DNA of 64,000 nucleotides from NCBI RefSeq assembly GCF_029227855.1, contig NZ_CP074356.1. One strand, written 5' to 3'. A model generated the notes under the pieces. The model made no database searches. It was given only the letters and a program-made list of their open reading frames with translations, and was not told the DNA's origin. Position 1 is the stretch's first letter. Each line of letters opens with the position of its first letter. This document shows, in pieces, positions 500-48,648 of the stretch. Source of the DNA: Escherichia coli (GTDB lineage Bacteria > Pseudomonadota > Gammaproteobacteria > Enterobacterales > Enterobacteriaceae). The position numbers and the translations under genes are program-made.

Positions 500-775
500 A
501 TGTCGATGTACACAACCGCCCAGCTGCTGGCGGCAAATGAGCAGAAATTTAAGTTTGATCCGCTGTTTCTGCGTCTCTTTTTCCGTGAGAGCTATCCCTT
601 CACCACGGAGAAAGTCTATCTCTCACAAATTCCGGGGCTGGTAAACATGGCGCTGTACGTTTCGCCGATTGTTTCCGGTGAGGTTATCCGCTCCCGTGGC
701 GGCTCCACCTCTGAATTTACGCCGGGATATGTCAAGCCGAAGCACTTAGCATGGCTTTCTGAGGCTTTCGTGTAG
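500..775 (+). pseudogene. E: major capsid protein E, 5' fragment (first ~82 codons), interrupted at 735-744 by an inserted element
   Basis: From ATG 500 the product MSMYTTAQLLAANEQKF...GYVKPKH is lambda gpE N-terminus; after the core at 735-744 the frame continues into unrelated sequence and stops at 775. Confidence 0.92.
735..744. repeat. attL core / target-site direct repeat (AGCCGAAGCA)
   Basis: Identical 10-mer recurs at 11864-11873; prophage E sequence resumes exactly after the right copy. Confidence 0.85.
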
Positions 776-2144: not shown

Positions 2145-2375
2145 ATGAAAAAAATGGCAATTGTTGATAAAAAGGGTCTGGAGTACATTCCTAACATTGA
2201 CCGAATGATCCGTGAGAAAGAATGTCGGGAGCTAACTACTCTTGCGAACAGCACACGCTGGAAGCTGGAGAAGGAAGGAAAATTTCCTAAGCGGATCAAG
2301 ATTGGTTCCACTGCTGTTGCATATCGTCTTTCAGAAGTGCAGGCATGGATTCGAGGTGAGTGGGAAACAACTTAA
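2145..2375 (+). CDS. alpA: AlpA-family HTH transcriptional regulator / excisionase-like protein
   Basis: 76-aa product with AlpA-type HTH (RIKIGSTAVAYRLSEVQAWI); immediately downstream of int as in P4-like and PICI elements. Confidence 0.8.
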   Translation: MKKMAIVDKKGLEYIPNIDRMIREKECRELTTLANSTRWKLEKEGKFPKRIKIGSTAVAYRLSEVQAWIRGEWETT

Positions 2376-4871: not shown

Positions 4872-5171
4872 ATGGAAATGAAAAATTCTGGCTTTATTGC
4901 CAGCGGCCCCGCTCGGCCTGAATTTATGAACGGCGATATTTACCGCGATAAATACGGCGGCACGGTAACGATTAAAGGCGTGGCAGAACGGCGCATCACT
5001 TACCGCCGTGAGGGGTATAGCTATGACTGCGTGATGCCTGTTTATCAGTTCCGGCGTGATTTTTCCCTGGTATATGCCGCACCCCGCAGTAAGCCCATCA
5101 GCAGGGAAAAAGCGCGGGGAAACATCCAGAAAATGAAAAGCATGATTAACGCATTCAGGGGCAAAAAATGA
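4872..5171 (+). CDS. hypothetical protein (99 aa)
   Basis: ORF whose stop overlaps the primase start. Confidence 0.45.
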   Translation: MEMKNSGFIASGPARPEFMNGDIYRDKYGGTVTIKGVAERRITYRREGYSYDCVMPVYQFRRDFSLVYAAPRSKPISREKARGNIQKMKSMINAFRGKK

Positions 5172-6919
5172 AACTGGCACCGAACTTAAAAAAACAGCCA
5201 CGCGACAGACTGACAGAGGTAATCATCTTTGCAGGTAGTGATGCGTGGAGCCATGCGAAAGAGTGGCGGGAATGGGCGGGTAAACATATTGCCGCCGACG
5301 ATGTGCCGCCTGTCGTGCTGGCTGATGAGCAACTGAAAAATATCACCGATTACCGGATCATTGATGAAGATCGTCAGTGTGTGCGTGTTTACCGCGCAGG
5401 ACATATCACAGAGCACAGCATGACGCAGATTGTTACGTTACTGGCTGTGGCTGGAGTGAAGACCGTACACGAATACGCGGGGATTACTGACACCAGCCCA
5501 GTGGATTTATCCGAGCAGTTGCCGCGACTCAAAGAGGAATGCGAGCGTGGGGAAAGTCTGGTGCTTAATCTTCCGACGAAGCAAAAGGCGCAACTTTCAC
5601 AGATGGCAGACAGTGAACGTGCACAACTACTTGCCGATCGCTTTGATGGTGTGTGTGTTCATGCAGAAAGTGAAATCGTCCACGTATGGCGCGGCGGGGT
5701 ATGGTGTCCGGTCAGCACAATGGAGCTGAGCCGCGAAATGGTGGCGATCTATTCAGAGCACAGGGCCACGTTCAGCAAACGTGTAATCAATAACGCCGTG
5801 GAAGCGTTAAAAGTTATTGCCGACCCCATGGGGGAGCCGTCCGGTGATTTGCTACCGTTCACTAATGGTGTGCTTAACCTGAAAACGGGGGAATTTTCTC
5901 CGCACTCGCCGGAGCACTGGAGCACCACGCACAATGGCATTGAGTACACGCCACCAGTAGCAGGGGAAAACATCCGCGATAATGCGCCAAATTTCCATAA
6001 ATGGCTTGAACATGCTGCAAGAAAAGACCCGCGCAAGATGATGCGTATATGTGCCGCGTTATACATGATTATGGCGAACCGCTACGACTGGCAGATGTTC
6101 ATTGAGGCCACCGGAGACGGGGGAAGCGGTAAGAGTACATTTACCCATATTGCCACCCTGCTTGCTGGCAAACAGAACACCGTAAGCGCGGAGATGACAT
6201 CACTCGATGATGCAGGAGGGCGCGCGCAGGTTGTCGGGAGTCGTCTTATCGTCCTTGCCGATCAGCCGAAATATACGGGGGAAGGCACGGGCATCAAGAA
6301 AATCACGGGAGGCGATCCCGTTGAAATTAACCCGAAATATGAGAAGCGATTCACGACGATAATAAGGGCGGTGGTACTGGCAACCAATAACGACCCGATG
6401 ATCTTTACCGAACGGGCCGGAGGTGTGTCACGCCGTCGGGTGATTTTCCGGTTCGACAACATTGTAAGGGAGGACGAAAAAGACAAGGAATTACCGGAAA
6501 AGATAGCGGCAGAAATCCCCGTAATTATCCGCCGCTTGCTGGCTAATTTTGCTGACCCTGAAAAGGCACGGGCTTTATTACTGGAACAGCGTGACGGTGA
6601 TGAAGCTCTGGCAATAAAGCAGCAAACGGATCCGGTTGTTGAGCTTTGCGCGGCGCTGGAGTTTCTGGAGGAAGCTCGTGGGCTAATGATGGGCGGTGGT
6701 GGTGACACCGTGAAGTACACGACCAGAAACAGCCTTTACCGTGTCTATATGGCCTTCATGGCATACACAGGAAAGGGGAAATGTTTGAGCGTGAATGAGT
6801 TCGGAAAGGCTATGAGGTCAGCGGCGAAAGTTTACGGATATGAATATATTACGCGAAAAGTTAAGGGAGTCACGCAGACCAACGCAACGACTACTGATGA
6901 TTGCGATGCGTTTTTATAA
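5168..6919 (+). CDS. P4-alpha-type replication primase/helicase (phage/plasmid primase, P4 family C-terminal domain)
   Basis: 583-aa product with Walker A GDGGSGKST and surrounding blocks typical of P4-family primase C-terminal domains; followed by iterons. Confidence 0.85.
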   Translation: MKLAPNLKKQPRDRLTEVIIFAGSDAWSHAKEWREWAGKHIAADDVPPVVLADEQLKNITDYRIIDEDRQCVRVYRAGHITEHSMTQIVTLLAVAGVKTVHEYAGITDTSPVDLSEQLPRLKEECERGESLVLNLPTKQKAQLSQMADSERAQLLADRFDGVCVHAESEIVHVWRGGVWCPVSTMELSREMVAIYSEHRATFSKRVINNAVEALKVIADPMGEPSGDLLPFTNGVLNLKTGEFSPHSPEHWSTTHNGIEYTPPVAGENIRDNAPNFHKWLEHAARKDPRKMMRICAALYMIMANRYDWQMFIEATGDGGSGKSTFTHIATLLAGKQNTVSAEMTSLDDAGGRAQVVGSRLIVLADQPKYTGEGTGIKKITGGDPVEINPKYEKRFTTIIRAVVLATNNDPMIFTERAGGVSRRRVIFRFDNIVREDEKDKELPEKIAAEIPVIIRRLLANFADPEKARALLLEQRDGDEALAIKQQTDPVVELCAALEFLEEARGLMMGGGGDTVKYTTRNSLYRVYMAFMAYTGKGKCLSVNEFGKAMRSAAKVYGYEYITRKVKGVTQTNATTTDDCDAFL

Positions 6920-7208: not shown

Positions 7209-7466
7209 ATGCACACTTCAGGAAAACTGAACAAACATATAAAGCCACATTACCGCGCCCTTGATATGGCTGAACACTGGCTAAGGGTGGCGATTAAGGC
7301 AATAGACCGCAACGCCGGGGAAGGATACGCGAAAGCACATCCCGAACTGATAAGCGCATTCATGACAACGGCGGCTGCAAACTTTGCCACGCTGACCGAA
7401 CGGGAGATTGCTGAAGCGGAGGAAGTGACAACAATCAATATTAAGTCCGGAGAGCAGGCAGCATGA
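7209..7466 (+). CDS. hypothetical protein (85 aa)
   Basis: ORF whose stop overlaps the ssb start (ATGA). Confidence 0.45.
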   Translation: MHTSGKLNKHIKPHYRALDMAEHWLRVAIKAIDRNAGEGYAKAHPELISAFMTTAAANFATLTEREIAEAEEVTTINIKSGEQAA

Positions 7467-7912
7467 CGGCGCAAATATCAGTTTACGGGCGGTTGGTGGA
7501 CGACCCGCAGACAAAACAGACCAGCAAGGGCACCCCCATGACGCTGGCGCGTATGGCGGTATCACTGCCCTGCAGTCAGTCGGATGACGGTCTGGCGACG
7601 TTGTGGTTATCTGTCCTGGCGTTTGGCAGACAAGCCGACGCGCTGGCAAAGCATCACAAAGGCGAACTCCTGAGCGTGGCGGGTAACATGCAGATGAGCC
7701 AGTGGACTGGACAGAACGGCGAAACGCGGCAGGGCTGGCAGGTTATCGCAGACAGCGTAATCAGTGCGCGATCGGTGCGACCGGGCGGCAAAAAAGGCCA
7801 ACAGGGGCAGGCTACTGACGCACTGAACAGAGCAAAACAACAGGCAGATCAGCAAGGAAGCCAGCCACCAGAGGGAGATAATGAGCAATGGGGAGATGAT
7901 ATCCCGTTTTAA
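7463..7912 (+). CDS. ssb: single-stranded DNA-binding protein (SSB)
   Basis: 149-aa product with OB-fold-like N-terminal region and acidic C-terminal tail ending DDIPF. Confidence 0.75.
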   Translation: MTAQISVYGRLVDDPQTKQTSKGTPMTLARMAVSLPCSQSDDGLATLWLSVLAFGRQADALAKHHKGELLSVAGNMQMSQWTGQNGETRQGWQVIADSVISARSVRPGGKKGQQGQATDALNRAKQQADQQGSQPPEGDNEQWGDDIPF

Positions 7913-8128: not shown

Positions 8129-9169
8129 ATGGTTGATTTATATTCGCCTACTCAGCTTGTACAGGTAGTTAATGCTGTAGATGTACAAAAACAACTAAAT
8201 GCGTTGTTTACCAGTTTGTTTTTTACTCGCTCGGTAATGTTTGAATCGCGCGATATTATTCTTGATACAATCGACGATCCAAATATCCCAATTGCAGCGT
8301 TTTGTTCTCCTATGGTGGGTAGTAAAGTTTCACGTGACGAAGGGTACGAATCAAAAACAATTCGTCCAGGCTATATGAAGCCGAAAAGCAGCATTGATCC
8401 AAATAAGTTAGCTGTGCGCCCTGCTGGTGTGTCACCTGAGCAATACAATGCTTTTGGGGCGCGTAATATTAAAGTTAAACAGGCGATTGTAAATCAGGCT
8501 AAAGCTATTCGTGCACGTATTGAATGGCTTGCTGTTCAGGCAATCACAACGGGGAAAAATATCATTGAGGGCGATGGTATTGAACGTTATGAGCTGGACT
8601 GGAATATAAAACCACAAAATATCATCACTCAGTCTGGCGGTACTGAGTGGTCAGGTAAGGATAAAGAAACTTTTGATCCAAATGATGATATTGAGAGCTA
8701 CGCAGAATTTAGTGAGGGCGTCACTAATATCATCATTATGGGTGGTAATGTATGGAAGAAATACCGTTCATTCAGAGCGATAAAAGAGGCTTTGGATACC
8801 CGTCGTGGTTCTAATTCCGAACTGGAAACGGCCCTTAAAGACCTTGGTGATTCGGTGAGTTTTAAAGGGTATATGGGCGATGTTGCGATTGTTGTTTACA
8901 GCGGGCGTTATACCGACGAGGACGGAACAGAAAAACATTTCCTTGATCCTGATTTGATGGTGCTTGGCAATACGGCTCTTCAGGGGATTGTCGCCTATGG
9001 CGGTATTCAGGATCCGGAGCTAATCCGAATGGGGCTGACTAAAGCCGAACTTGCACCGAAAAACTATATTGTGCCTGGTGATCCGGCTATTGAATATGTG
9101 CAGACACATTCAGCACCACAGCCAATACCGGCCCGCATCAATCGTTTTGTTACCGTTCGCATTGGCTAA
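8129..9169 (+). CDS. major capsid protein paralogue (lambda gpE-like) encoded by the satellite
   Basis: ORF 7916-9169; from ATG 8129 (GAGG upstream) the product aligns collinearly with the prophage's own E, sharing blocks ITQSGGTEWS, DTRRGS.SELETA.KDLG and GDVAIVVYSG. Confidence 0.85.
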   Translation: MVDLYSPTQLVQVVNAVDVQKQLNALFTSLFFTRSVMFESRDIILDTIDDPNIPIAAFCSPMVGSKVSRDEGYESKTIRPGYMKPKSSIDPNKLAVRPAGVSPEQYNAFGARNIKVKQAIVNQAKAIRARIEWLAVQAITTGKNIIEGDGIERYELDWNIKPQNIITQSGGTEWSGKDKETFDPNDDIESYAEFSEGVTNIIIMGGNVWKKYRSFRAIKEALDTRRGSNSELETALKDLGDSVSFKGYMGDVAIVVYSGRYTDEDGTEKHFLDPDLMVLGNTALQGIVAYGGIQDPELIRMGLTKAELAPKNYIVPGDPAIEYVQTHSAPQPIPARINRFVTVRIG

Positions 9170-9178
9170 GGGGGAGCA

Positions 9179-9520
9179 ATGGCTACTCATTACACTGAAC
9201 TCATGGCTGGCACTGAAGCACTGGTGACTACGCTGGGGATATTTTCAGCTAATAAAGGGGTAATTCCTGCATTTACGCCACTGATGCAGGAAGATGCAAC
9301 AGGTGCACTGGTGGTATGGGATGGTTCGAGCGTAGGTAAAGCGGTTTATGTTTCCGCTGTACAAATCGACACCGCGAAAAAAACACAGGCTCAGGTCTAT
9401 AAGACAGGTGTCTTAAATGTTGATGCTCTGAACTGGCCTGAGTCTGTTAAAGAACTGTCAGTAAAGGTTGCAGCGTTTGTTGGCTCAGGTATTTCTGTTC
9501 AGCCGCTGGCTCGTGTGTAA
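9179..9520 (+). CDS. head decoration protein paralogue (lambda gpD-like) encoded by the satellite
   Basis: 113-aa product alignable with prophage D at 112-444 (LVVWDGSSVGKAV versus [13 protein letters not shown]; shared C-terminal G.AISV region). Confidence 0.75.
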   Translation: MATHYTELMAGTEALVTTLGIFSANKGVIPAFTPLMQEDATGALVVWDGSSVGKAVYVSAVQIDTAKKTQAQVYKTGVLNVDALNWPESVKELSVKVAAFVGSGISVQPLARV

Positions 9521-9531
9521 AGGGGGATACA

Positions 9532-9915
9532 ATGCAGAATGATTACAATGACCTTAAGCCAATTGCCGAAATGATGTACCCGAATCAAGCTGTAGAGGAA
9601 TTAAAAGCTATCGCTGACAAAATGTGTTTAAGCGAGCGCCTTGTTGATATGAATCAGGTGATGGAAATTACAACCCTGAGTCGTCGTACACTGCTAAACC
9701 TTGAGGCTAGTGGAGAGTTCCCGGAGCGTGTGCAGGTTACGGAAGGGCGTAAGGCCTGGTATTTAAGTGAAGTGATCGACTGGATAAATAATATTCCTCG
9801 CGCTTCTGAATATTGCCGCGTACCTGTCCCAAAAAAGCCAGATGCGGCGCTATGCCTCAAGATTGAGCGTGTACGCCGCAATGCACGGGATGGTCGCTAT
9901 AAGCTGATTGGTTGA
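9532..9915 (+). CDS. AlpA-family HTH protein adjacent to cos (candidate packaging-redirection or regulatory protein)
   Basis: 127-aa product with AlpA-type HTH (ITTLSRRTLLNLEASGEFPERVQV) and a basic C-terminal extension; immediately upstream of the cos site. Confidence 0.55.
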   Translation: MQNDYNDLKPIAEMMYPNQAVEELKAIADKMCLSERLVDMNQVMEITTLSRRTLLNLEASGEFPERVQVTEGRKAWYLSEVIDWINNIPRASEYCRVPVPKKPDAALCLKIERVRRNARDGRYKLIG

Positions 9916-9923
9916 TGAAATTA

Positions 9924-9950
9924 GGACCCGCTCTGGCTGGCGGGTCCTTT
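9924..9950 (+). terminator. hairpin terminator-like element after gene 9532-9915
   Basis: GGACCCG...CGGGTCC stem followed by TTT. Confidence 0.4.
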
Positions 9951-10145
9951 CCGGCGATCCAGAACGTTACGGGGCGTCAGGCGCGCAGTTTTTCGCTATT
10001 TGTGAAAATTTTCCTGTTTAAGGCGTTTCCGTTCTTCTTCGCCGTAACTTAATGTTTTTATTAAAAACACCCCCTAAAAAGAAAGGAAACGACAGGTGCT
10101 AAAAACAGGCTTTTTGGCCTCTGTCGTTTCCTTTCTCTGGTTTTG
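9940..10145. other. lambda-type cos site (cosN-equivalent at about 9972-9983; cosB R3-I1-R2-R1 to about 10140)
   Basis: Stretch TTTTCGCTATTTGTGAAAATTTTCCTGTTTAAGGCGTTTCCGTTCTTCTTCG...AAAGAAAGGAAACGACAGGTGCT...GGCTTTTTGGCCTCTGTCGTTTCCTTTCTCTG closely matches the left end of phage lambda (cosB) from memory; cosN 12-mer reads GGGCGTCAGGCG instead of GGGCGGCGACCT; no Nu1 gene follows. Confidence 0.8.
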
Positions 10146-10513
10146 TTGCCATCCGTCGCGGTCTATCACCAGAAAAAATCTTATCCCTGAGTTGAATCAG
10201 GCCCTATTCAGAAGCGGCCAATAACGCGCCGCTAGCTTCACTTCATAGTTATGGCCTACTTCTGCGCCATTGCAATTGCTTTATGCGCCTTGATGGTGGA
10301 ATATAGAGCAAGCAGTTTGCGAATAACAAAGTTTCATATGTTTTTTGCTGTGTGGCTAGACAACTTTACAGCAGAGTTTTGTGTCAGTTCTTTATGTGTG
10401 CAAGCAAGCTTGAGGGGGAATTACTTCTGGCTGTATCTTTGCTTAAGAACAGCAATAATTTAATCATAAGGAAATGTATATAAGCCTGATTAAATTTCAG
10501 GCTTATTGAAATG

Positions 10514-11656
10514 TTAACTCCTTATTAGAGAGTAAATTCCATCCTCTTTAAGGAAGTCTATTACTTCAAAGAATGAGATAAAGAATTCCCAAGAACCAAA
10601 AGCATATGCATGAATTTCGTAAGGTGCAAAATGGAATCTAAATCCATCACTATTTATTGTGAACGAGTCTAAGTTACTATCCATGATACCCGTTGCAAAC
10701 GTACTAATGTCGTCCTCACTTGGTTTTTCACCAGTTTTCTCCCAAAATTCACGAGCTGATTCAGAGATTATTTTTTGTTTTATCTTATTAATCGCTTCTT
10801 GCTCTTTCCCTTCGGTAAATACATCCCATAAACTAAATTTGTATGCGTAGTCATCCTTGGTTATTACGAAATTACTAGTTTCAAAATGACTGTTAGGGTG
10901 TGCTGCTCCCGCACCATACCAATGTACGGAATGAAGGATGCTCATGACATTTTCGTTACAGTATGAGATGTTATAACTTTCATTATAGGAACTAGTGTAA
11001 GTGTGTTTATATTCTTCATCCCAATATGGTGTTCCTGGCCATAGTGATGTGCGTTCAGAAAAAATATGTAAAGCCGCTTTTCCTGAAAAGTAATCACTAA
11101 TGAGTTTTGCTGATTTCGGTAATGTATGGCTTTCAATTCTTGGATATGCTATTTCAATTTCATGCCCTGGGATCTTGTTATATTCTTCCTTGAAAACCTC
11201 GCTGCTAAAGTTAAATGGCCCATAAGTGATACCTTGAGATATTTCAAGTTTTTGTTGCGATGCTGCTAATCTTAAAGATCTAGATAAAATGTCCCAACCA
11301 TCATTTCTCTTAAAATCAATGAATTGGAGCTTGCTTGATATGTAGGCGGGTACTTCGCAATCATCAATAAGTAATGGTATCACGAACACATCATCTGGTT
11401 TGTAATACTTTAGTTTATCAATGGCGTCATTTATTTCGCGGCGAATATAACCATTTTTCTGAGTGCTCACTTTGCTAAGGATAAGGATTATCAAGTTTGA
11501 ATTAGCGAAGTTTTTTTGGATTTCATAATCCCAGTTTACGCCAGCGGGTATATCTTTTACATCCATCCAAGGGGAATATCCTCCACTTTTTAGCCTTTCA
11601 TAGATTTCTTCAGTTATCGTTTCATCTTCTTTTGCATGAGCAAGAAAAATTTTCAT
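10514..11656 (-). CDS. TIR-domain protein with C-terminal domain of unknown function (candidate anti-phage defence gene)
   Basis: 380-aa product; N-terminal about 135 aa looks like a TIR domain (MKIFLAHAKEDE...ILILSKVS...REINDAIDKL); C-terminal about 240 aa unassigned (contains HWYGAGAAHP motif); AT-rich; last gene before attR. Confidence 0.7.
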   Translation of the reverse strand: MKIFLAHAKEDETITEEIYERLKSGGYSPWMDVKDIPAGVNWDYEIQKNFANSNLIILILSKVSTQKNGYIRREINDAIDKLKYYKPDDVFVIPLLIDDCEVPAYISSKLQFIDFKRNDGWDILSRSLRLAASQQKLEISQGITYGPFNFSSEVFKEEYNKIPGHEIEIAYPRIESHTLPKSAKLISDYFSGKAALHIFSERTSLWPGTPYWDEEYKHTYTSSYNESYNISYCNENVMSILHSVHWYGAGAAHPNSHFETSNFVITKDDYAYKFSLWDVFTEGKEQEAINKIKQKIISESAREFWEKTGEKPSEDDISTFATGIMDSNLDSFTINSDGFRFHFAPYEIHAYAFGSWEFFISFFEVIDFLKEDGIYSLIRS

Positions 11657-11863: not shown

Positions 11864-11873
11864 AGCCGAAGCA
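11864..11873. repeat. attR core / target-site direct repeat (AGCCGAAGCA)
   Basis: Identical to 735-744; E sequence (HEVNPQMTL...) resumes from this point. Confidence 0.85.
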
Positions 11874-12699
11874 TGAGGTGAATCCGCAGATGACCCTGCG
11901 TCGCCTGCCGGATGAAGATCCGCAGAATCTGGCGGACCCGGCTTACCGCCGCCGTCGCATCATTATGCAGAACATGCGTGACGAAGAGCTGGCCATTGCC
12001 CAGGTCGAAGAGATGCAGGCAGTTTCTGCCGTGCTTAAGGGCAAATACACCATGACCGGTGAAGCCTTCGATCCGGTTGAGGTGGATATGGGCCGCAGTG
12101 AGGCGAATAACATCACGCAGTCCGGCGGCACGGAGTGGAGCAAGCGTGACAAGTCCACGTATGACCCGACCGACGATATCGAAGCCTACGCGCTGAACGC
12201 CAGCGGAGTGGTGAATATCATCGTGTTTGATCCGAAAGGCTGGGCGCTGTTCCGTTCCTTCAAAGCCGTCAAGGAGAAGCTGGATACTCGTCGCGGCTCT
12301 CATTCCGAGCTGGAGACAGCGGTGAAAGACCTGGGCAAAGCGGTGTCCTACAAGGGGATGTATGGCGATGTGGCCATCGTCGTGTATTCCGGACAGTACG
12401 TGGAAAACGGCGTCAAAAAGAACTTCCTGCCGGACAACACGATGGTGCTGGGGAACACTCAGGCACGCGGTCTGCGCACCTATGGCTGCATTCAGGATGC
12501 GGACGCACAGCGCGAAGGCATTAACTCCTCTGCCCGTTACCCGAAAAACTGGGTGACCACCGGCGATCCGGCGCGTGAGTTCACCATGATTCAGTCAGCA
12601 CCGCTGATGCTGCTGGCTGACCCTGATGAGTTCGTGTCCGTACAACTGGCGCAATCGTGGCCCTTCGGGGCCATTTTCTCTCTGTGGAGGAGTCCATGA
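11864..12699 (+). pseudogene. E: major capsid protein E, 3' fragment (about 260 codons), with the lambda stop position read as CAA
   Basis: Product ...EVNPQMTLRRLPDEDPQ...DEFVSVQLA is lambda gpE from about residue 83; 500-744 plus 11874-12654 equals 1026 nt, the lambda E length; frame runs on 15 codons to TGA at 12697-12699. Confidence 0.9.

Positions 12700-46123: not shown

Positions 46124-48648
<2,525 letters not shown>

Follow-up and report, generated by a model that had tools for sequence, protein, structure and literature searches.

A lambda-type cos site with a variant cohesive end in an 11capE-type satellite embedded in gene E of an Escherichia coli prophage

The stretch of DNA analysed here (the window) comprises 64,000 nucleotides of the Escherichia coli contig NZ_CP074356.1 (assembly GCF_029227855.1). 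It carries an 11.1-kb helper-embedded phage-inducible chromosomal island (PICI) of the published 11capE type, inserted in gene E of a lambdoid prophage, and positions 9941-10146, near the right end of this insertion, form a complete and probably functional lambda-type cos site (cosQ - cosN - R3 - I1 - R2 - R1). The best-supported reading of the sequence is that the unmodified terminase of the helper phage (the small subunit TerS, Nu1 in lambda, and the large subunit TerL, gpA), together with IHF, recognises the satellite cos through a shared cosB and cuts it. The 12-nt cohesive-end sequence differs from that of lambda and of the related helpers; the likelier consequence is that the cohesive ends are non-complementary, not that recognition is altered. 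The satellite family and its cos-like block have been published, whereas the private cohesive end, strictly paired with a helper-type cosB, has not been reported.

In a local alignment of window 9860-10260 with the joined ends of lambda (NC_001416), positions 9941-10146 match lambda 48472-48502 joined to 1-176 with 185 identities over 208 columns, interrupted by two offsetting 1-nt gaps and one 1-nt deletion. BLASTN of the cos stretch against deposited phage genomes gave E = 6e-67 for lambda itself and values down to 6e-80 for other lambdoid phages, and the similarity to lambda cos that the initial annotation had noted at 9940-10145 is real. The subsites, with the extent of R3 taken from PMC9026076, are the following.

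9942-9948, plus strand: cosQ GGGTCCT, the packaging termination signal, identical to lambda 48473-48479
9972-9983, plus strand: cosN, the 12-nt cohesive-end sequence GGGCGTCAGGCG, placed by alignment to lambda bp 1-12
10021-10036, plus strand: cosB site R3, a TerS site, AGGCGTTTCCGTTCTT, identical to lambda bp 50-65, with the lambda spacing to cosN
10037-10079, plus strand: the R3-R2 interval (in lambda, IHF site I1), equal in length, with 6 substitutions and an identical core TAACTTAATGTTTTTATT
10080-10095, minus strand: cosB site R2 AGAAAGGAAACGACAG, identical to lambda and inverted relative to R3 and R1
10121-10136, plus strand: cosB site R1 CTGTCGTTTCCTTTCT, identical to lambda

All the sequence hallmarks of a lambda-type cos are present: a cosQ heptamer about 23 bp upstream of the top-strand nick, a cosN, and a cosB with the R3 spacing, the IHF interval and the inverted R2 with R1, the pair that had already been picked out from the sequence. 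Homology with lambda ends at 10146 (lambda bp 176), 14 bp short of the position of the Nu1 start codon, in agreement with the earlier remark that it stops around there. No terminase gene was detected in the whole window: in tblastn, neither gpA nor lambda Nu1 nor either of two types of satellite TerS gave a significant match (best E = 0.07). No second cos-like site was found in the window either. The proposal that a cos without terminase genes marks a satellite which hijacks the terminase of its helper is borne out by the identity of the carrier, an 11capE-type helper-embedded PICI, although this general reading was already known.

It is very improbable that the site is the decaying remnant of a phage segment captured earlier, devoid of present function. 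A relic would fit the nonsense codon in the integrase gene of the window copy and the abrupt end of homology where Nu1 was lost, but all functional subsites are intact at exact spacing, the captured block corresponds almost exactly to the minimal cos, cosQ through R1, and the subsites are conserved over dozens of relatives, in 23 haplotypes, while the flanking DNA varies.

The one part of the site that diverges is cosN. As the initial annotation had noticed, the 12-mer GGGCGTCAGGCG is not that of lambda, GGGCGGCGACCT: five of the 12 bases are changed, at positions 6, 8, 9, 10 and 12. Most of these changes fall in the right half, which is reported to be tolerant, and position 6 is central. Base pairs 1-5, including G2, and C11 are retained, as are the CG dinucleotides beside both nick sites, and the pattern ACG/GGGCG.....C./CGC (slashes at the nick sites) is kept. 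By homology, the nicks are predicted before 9972 on the top strand and after 9983 on the bottom strand. Mutations at cosN bp 7-12 had minimal effect in the work of Feiss et al. 2015 (PMC4669245), whereas the left half, C11, cosQ and the flanking CG were constrained; lambda TerL was equally good on the lambda and N15 cosN, since TerS bound at R3 positions the nuclease. Natural variation is listed in the same study: N15 and phiD326 differ from lambda at bp 9 and 12, and Gifsy-1 at bp 8, 9 and 11. The present case resembles these in that one TerL works on different alleles; unlike them, GGGCGTCAGGCG differs at five positions including bp 6 and is found mainly in satellites inside helpers with the lambda allele.

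Among 53 IMG/VR contigs with TACGGGGCGTCAGGCGCG, 48-49 are satellites (about 92%) and four are ordinary lambdoid proviruses. An earlier candidate explanation, that the variant cosN is a satellite invention (23/23 IMG/VR contigs with GTTACGGGGCGTCAGGCGCGC are satellites), was rejected when shorter and degenerate patterns uncovered these four copies in phage context. Three of the four GGGCGTCAGGCG proviruses, those with Nu1 in view, encode a Nu1 98-99% identical to that of lambda. In the provirus L096, the one with gpA in view, the E gene is intact, and its gpA shares 99.4% identity with that of a helper whose cosN is the lambda one. The deposited phage genome PhiR46_1 has a third allele, GGGCGGAAGGCG, whose right half AGGCG is shared with the satellite, and its gpA is 99.5% identical to that of the helper L005, which has the lambda cosN. 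Five gpA sequences spanning the three cosN alleles are 98.6-99.5% identical, and none of their substitutions tracks the cosN allele. The exact GGGCGTCAGGCG allele was not found in the deposited phage collection, in which the closest sequence is GGGCGGAAGGCG, in PhiR46_1 and YDC107_1. Lambda-like cos sites in IMG/VR (loci L032-L150 and L184-L263) have at least seven overhang alleles (GGGCGGCGACCT, GGGCGGCGTCCG, GGGCGGAAGGCG, GGGCGTCAGGCG, GGGCGGCAGACG, GGGCGGCTGACG and GGGCGACGACCT), all of which fit GGGCG.....C., with bp 1-5 and C11 kept. This survey adds to the natural variants given in Feiss et al. 2015.

From these comparisons, we consider it likely that GGGCGTCAGGCG is a naturally occurring cosN allele which a lambda-type TerL can be expected to cut, and that it is not a determinant of terminase specificity. 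The opposite suggestion, made in the initial annotation, was that the altered cosN creates packaging specificity: the diverged site would be a different substrate, cut poorly by an unmodified lambda-type terminase or requiring a modified or partner-assisted nuclease. With five of 12 overhang positions changed, the central position 6 among them, and an allele that is so strongly associated with satellites in IMG/VR and absent from the deposited phages, this suggestion has some appeal, but we regard it as unlikely. Neither the element nor the window has a TerL or TerS gene; the same allele occurs in proviruses with lambda-like Nu1, and gpA does not co-vary with the allele; G2 and C11 are retained, together with the CG dinucleotides at the nick sites; and changes at bp 7-12 are tolerated by a TerL that does not discriminate between alleles and whose nicking is positioned by R3-bound TerS (PMC4669245, PMC9026076). 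Three points weigh against our preference for a site cut by the ordinary terminase: none of the mutants tested in published work equals the GGGCGTCAGGCG allele, the four GGGCGTCAGGCG proviruses are predicted ones and the allele is in no deposited phage record, and both cutting and the nick positions at the satellite cosN are assigned by homology.

The window begins within the prophage gene D, and the cos of the resident prophage therefore lies outside it. The helper cos was read in four related composites of helper and satellite (NZ_CP018206, NZ_CP048330, NZ_CP195389 and NZ_AP025677). In all four, the helper overhang is GGGCGGCGACCT and that of the embedded satellite is GGGCGTCAGGCG; the possibility, raised at the outset, that helper and satellite cos are identical does not hold in these related genomes. 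Helper and satellite do not differ in cosQ or the R sites, and cosB is near-identical and of the same type. The two cos sites are 15.2-15.3 kb apart in the same orientation, and the Nu1 of one of these helpers is 100% identical to lambda Nu1. Because cosB is shared and the allele co-occurs with lambda-type terminase, helper Nu1 and gpA with IHF would be expected to recognise and cut the satellite site.

With DNA nearest-neighbour parameters, the duplex energies of matched ends are -18.7 and -19.0 kcal/mol, against about -9 kcal/mol, in a shifted register, for hybrid ends of satellite and helper. For comparison, the two-base mismatch between lambda and N15 ends gives -15.3 kcal/mol, and that end mismatch lowers the viable yield fourfold (PMC4669245). 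Since the satellite and helper overhangs are non-complementary, satellite DNA is expected to form circles only through its own ends. If an unexcised composite measures 61 kb, the size given for 11capE (PMC10111431), about 45 kb would separate its satellite cos from the following helper cos; DNA packaged over this interval would be of packageable length and would have mismatched ends.

Packaging of the satellite would, by homology, proceed as follows. After induction, the satellite would be excised and replicated from its own primase and origin into concatemers. Helper Nu1 and IHF would bind the satellite cosB, whose R3, R2 and R1 are identical to those of the helper, and the bound TerS would position helper gpA to make nicks 12 bp apart at the satellite cosN. 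DNA would then be moved into capsids until packaging stops at a downstream cosQ and cosN when the head is nearly full. Packaging would probably be in multimers, as four 11.13-kb units amount to 44.5 kb, which fits a lambda-size head. Lambda or phi80 can package PICIs that have a cos but no terS, and the packaged DNA is then phage-sized; EcCICFT073 is likewise packaged phage-sized (PMC6092414). In this scheme, the role of the variant 12-mer would be to make the satellite ends complementary to themselves only and not to those of the helper.

To see how far the combination of variant cosN and helper-type cosB extends, we considered 76 IMG/VR satellite relatives sampled through the 127-aa protein encoded next to cos, without reference to cosN. 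They fall into two equal groups.

Lambda-type cosB, n = 38: cosN is GGGCGTCAGGCG in 38/38; the insertion is readable in 26, all in gene E
Unrelated cosB followed by the satellite's own TerS, n = 38: cosN is GGGCGGCGACCT in 30, GGGCGTCAGGCG in 6, GGGCGGAAGGCG in 1 and GGGCGGCTGACG in 1; the insertion, where readable, is in portal gene B in 10 and in gene E in 7

The first group represents 23 distinct cos haplotypes, in which cosQ, cosN and the R sites are kept while the flanking DNA varies. In the second group, the TerS is about 35% identical to Nu1 where tested, with a divergent DNA-binding end and a more conserved C-terminal half. The association between cosB type and cosN allele has a Fisher p of 2e-13, uncorrected for relatedness. 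To try to falsify this pattern, 5,426 complete E. coli genomes were searched with a synthetic query in which the satellite left flank is followed by the lambda cosN and the lambda cosB. Of the 127 full-length matches obtained, none exceeded 96.5% identity; two of the best, L266 and L267, were read and have phage-like flanks on both sides of cosN and an exact variant 12-mer. Thus, a satellite with both the lambda cosN and the lambda cosB was absent among the 76 IMG/VR loci, and the top-ranked of the 127 genome matches gave no sign of one. The GGGCGTCAGGCG allele occurs on satellite backbones with two primase types that are only 48% identical.

A tentative explanation for why cosN differs, which adds to the proposed packaging by helper terminase and does not compete with it, is that selection maintains end incompatibility: the ends of a satellite that is embedded in co-orientation and shares the cosB of its helper would be kept non-complementary to those of the helper. 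The DNA of about 45 kb from satellite cos to helper cos, or helper and satellite molecules in one cell, would then be unable to circularise or to join. This explanation agrees with the difference in all four composites and with the spacing of their cos sites, with the gap between matched and hybrid duplex energies, with the 38/38 and 30/38 pairings of cosN and cosB types, with the outcome of the synthetic-query search and with the spread of the allele over two primase types. Against it, the counts are not independent events, since each cos configuration belongs for the most part to one of two lineages of the adjacent gene (98-100% vs 94-95% identity); cosN is situated at the left margin of the block homologous to phages, and linkage alone could preserve the allele there; and it is not evident what the satellite itself, and not the helper, would gain, the fitness effect being hypothetical. 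On balance, the family pattern is compatible with selection for a cos unlike that of the helper, a possibility to which we give somewhat less than even weight, and descent and linkage could explain much of it. A broader formulation, offered with more reserve, is a rule of cos orthogonality by which the cos of a helper-embedded satellite must differ from that of its helper in at least one subsite, either through private ends GGGCGTCAGGCG, in satellites that reuse the TerS and cosB of the helper, or through an own TerS and a matching foreign cosB, in those that keep the lambda ends.

Several relatives depart from the window arrangement in their terminase genes. In close relatives (L002, 11161-11712; L266 and L267, 1522-2073), a terS gene directly follows the same cos. 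Residues 1-100 of the L002 protein, which include the DNA-binding part and the core, are nearly identical to lambda Nu1, whereas residues 101-183, the TerL-binding half, are strongly diverged; it looks like a chimeric small terminase. Sister satellites inserted in portal gene B (codon 273/274) of lambda-type helpers, such as L264 10418-21329 (NZ_AP045067), have the lambda cosQ and cosN, an unrelated cosB and their own TerS about 35% identical to Nu1, which suggests that they redirect helper TerL through this TerS.

The assignment of the carrier is based on its insertion site and gene content, which are as follows.

500-744, plus strand: codons 1-82 of the prophage gene E for the major capsid protein, separated by the insertion from the remainder of the gene (BLASTN with the intact E of L096: 98.8% over E nt 1-245)
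735-744, no strand assigned: attL core AGCCGAAGCA, a 10-bp identity block read from the sequence, matching the 10-bp block reported for 11capE (PMC10111431)
908-2143, plus strand: satellite tyrosine integrase with a premature stop, TGA at 1367-1369 (translation and alignment to the intact gene of L001)
2145-2375, plus strand: small helix-turn-helix regulator at the alpA position, directly after int (open reading frame (ORF); RefSeq annotation of relatives as helix-turn-helix regulator)
5168-6919, plus strand: satellite DNA primase of the replication module (ORF; RefSeq annotation of relatives)
7463-7912, plus strand: single-stranded DNA-binding protein (phrog_44, E = 1.9e-37)
8129-9169, plus strand: the satellite's own major capsid protein homologue (phrog_29, E = 2e-89; about 41-45% identity to helper E by tblastn)
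9179-9520, plus strand: the satellite's own gpD-like head decoration protein homologue (phrog_49, E = 1.3e-25)
9532-9915, plus strand: 127-aa AlpA-domain protein (PF05930 over residues 36-85; PDB 8c3t, E = 2e-9)
10514-11656, minus strand: cargo gene for a TIR-domain protein, situated between cos and attR (RefSeq annotation of relatives; PADLOC TIR models, E = 2e-17)
11864-11873, no strand assigned: attR core AGCCGAAGCA, a direct repeat of the attL core
11866-12654, plus strand: 3' portion of the prophage E gene, starting at codon 80 (BLASTN with the same E: 95.4% over E nt 238-1026)

Gene E is thus split at codon 80 by the 10-bp att cores, and the core-to-core length of the satellite is 11,129 bp. 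To its left are the decoration gene D and the 5' part of E, and to its right the remainder of E and the tail genes; in relatives, head genes are likewise upstream of the satellite and tail genes downstream, the placement typical of the capE group of helper-embedded PICIs. The order int-alpA-...-pri-ssb-capsid-decoration-AlpA-like-cos agrees with RefSeq-annotated relatives and with the description of 11capE, and follows the PICI layout of int and alpA, a variable zone, a primase and replication zone, and a late zone with a capsid homologue. Relatives are 99% identical over most of the element; the closest matches among the 5,426 complete genomes are at 99.2-99.6% with partial coverage, or at 99.4% over the cargo end.

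The 11capE element of E. coli NRG857c, described by Tommasini, Mageeney and Williams 2023 (PMC10111431), is 11 kb long, has 201 relatives at the gene E site and lacks terS. It shares with its helper a 258-bp match, 90% identical, at the lambda cos position, and packaging by the helper cos machinery was presumed. The window satellite is like 11capE in its length of about 11 kb, its gene E site with a 10-bp identity block, its co-orientation with the late genes, its int, alpA, primase and own capsid gene, the lack of terS and a cos-like block about 90% identical to the helper cos. It is unlike 11capE as published in that the description neither dissects the cos nor mentions a distinct cohesive-end sequence, and in that the window copy has a TIR-domain cargo gene and a truncated integrase.

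The cargo gene encodes a 380-aa protein. This minus-strand ORF after cos had been taken as a candidate integrase, which was rejected once the PADLOC models identified it as a TIR-domain protein. In relatives, the slot between cos and attR holds other genes (a 311-aa hypothetical protein, a DUF2971 protein, a TerS), and it is the variable cargo position of the island; the genes in it possibly serve anti-phage defence. A 70-aa ORF after cos (10251-10463) gave no family or structure match.

Of the known cos-type satellites, the Rpp-type PICI EcCICFT073 (Fillol-Salom et al. 2018, 2019; Murialdo and Feiss 2022) is similar in being a lambdoid satellite without terminase genes, with capsid and decoration homologues beside cos and with reliance on the helper TerS and TerL. 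In its cos it is the mirror image, with helper-like cosQ and cosN and an unrelated cosB read by an Rpp-TerS heterodimer (PMC6739421, PMC9026076), whereas the window satellite has a helper-type cosB, a differing cosN and no detected Rpp homologue. The Rpp-type arrangement, a cosB unrelated to that of the helper next to helper-like cosN and cosQ, is thus not that of the window satellite. Nor was an rpp gene detected next to cos: no co-oriented gene of Rpp size follows it, and the neighbouring proteins gave no match to RppC in PDB, a result that is based on PDB matches and presupposes that the copy searched contains RppC.

The gene on the other side of cos offers a second candidate. The 127-aa AlpA-domain protein might be an Rpp-like factor that redirects packaging at or near cosQ and cosN in favour of the satellite. 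Its gene is the last before cos, at -433..-53 from cosN, in every satellite locus that reaches that far upstream, and its domain is a winged helix-turn-helix, the fold class common to the DNA-binding domains of TerS and Rpp (PMC6739421). However, phmmer against all PDB chains, a set that should hold the RppC entries 6HLK and 6HN7, returned only an AlpA protein and chance-level matches (E above 0.3); the best family matches are excisionase and regulator families (phrog_2790, PF05930); the architecture, with a 35-aa N-terminal extension, is unlike Rpp; and a helper-type cosB makes a new DNA specificity unnecessary. We therefore think such a role improbable, and recognition by helper terminase through the shared cosB remains the preferred reading.

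A stem-loop at 9923-9948 on the plus strand directly follows the 127-aa gene, with a 10-bp stem whose 3' arm holds cosQ and an RNA folding energy of -20.3 kcal/mol (z = -2.3). It is kept in all satellite relatives, one pair alternating between A-U and G-U, whereas phage cos sites have no such hairpin upstream. Possibly it is a terminator that overlaps the packaging termination signal. A promoter and terminator scan around cos found nothing beyond shuffle expectation.

Among more distant systems, the cos-type SaPIs, e.g. SaPIbov5, are similar in that they carry the cos of the helper, have no terminase and rely wholly on the helper terminase (as summarised in PMC6092414). They differ in being from Gram-positive bacteria, with an unrelated cos and an HNH-dependent terminase, and have been described with the cos sequence of the helper, not with a variant overhang.

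The copy in this strain shows possible signs of decay. The integrase gene has a TGG to TGA change at codon 154, where relatives carry an intact 411-aa gene. The normal stop of the prophage gene E is lost (TAA to CAA after ...VSVQLA), and 15 further codons are read (window 12652-12699); this may be a sign of a degenerating helper or a polymorphism. A copy with a truncated integrase is probably unable to excise, which would leave the helper capsid gene permanently split, and the satellite of this strain, hence its helper, may be immobilised. Given the truncated integrase and the lost E stop, the pair of helper and satellite in this strain may be decaying, which counts against present use of the cos here. 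A stranded satellite of the window type is found in E. coli IAI39 (L154; NC_011750 532000-545500), where the left arm of the helper (lysis genes, cos, Nu1 to 5' E) is gone and an IS3 element and a tRNA-Arg region adjoin the shortened integrase gene.

Taken as such, the site is an ordinary example of a known strategy, in which a satellite carries the packaging signal of its helper in place of terminase genes. What it adds is a contrast: Rpp-type islands keep the cut site and change the TerS-binding site, whereas the present group keeps the TerS-binding site and changes the overhang. If the family pattern reflects selection, the sticky-end sequence would matter for how a nested parasite avoids, or causes, mispackaging. 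If cos orthogonality is true, private ends would prevent viable hybrid chromosomes running from satellite cos to helper cos, or end joining between helper and satellite, and the cohesive-end sequence would bear on the conflict and compatibility of phages with their satellites in a way not recognised so far.

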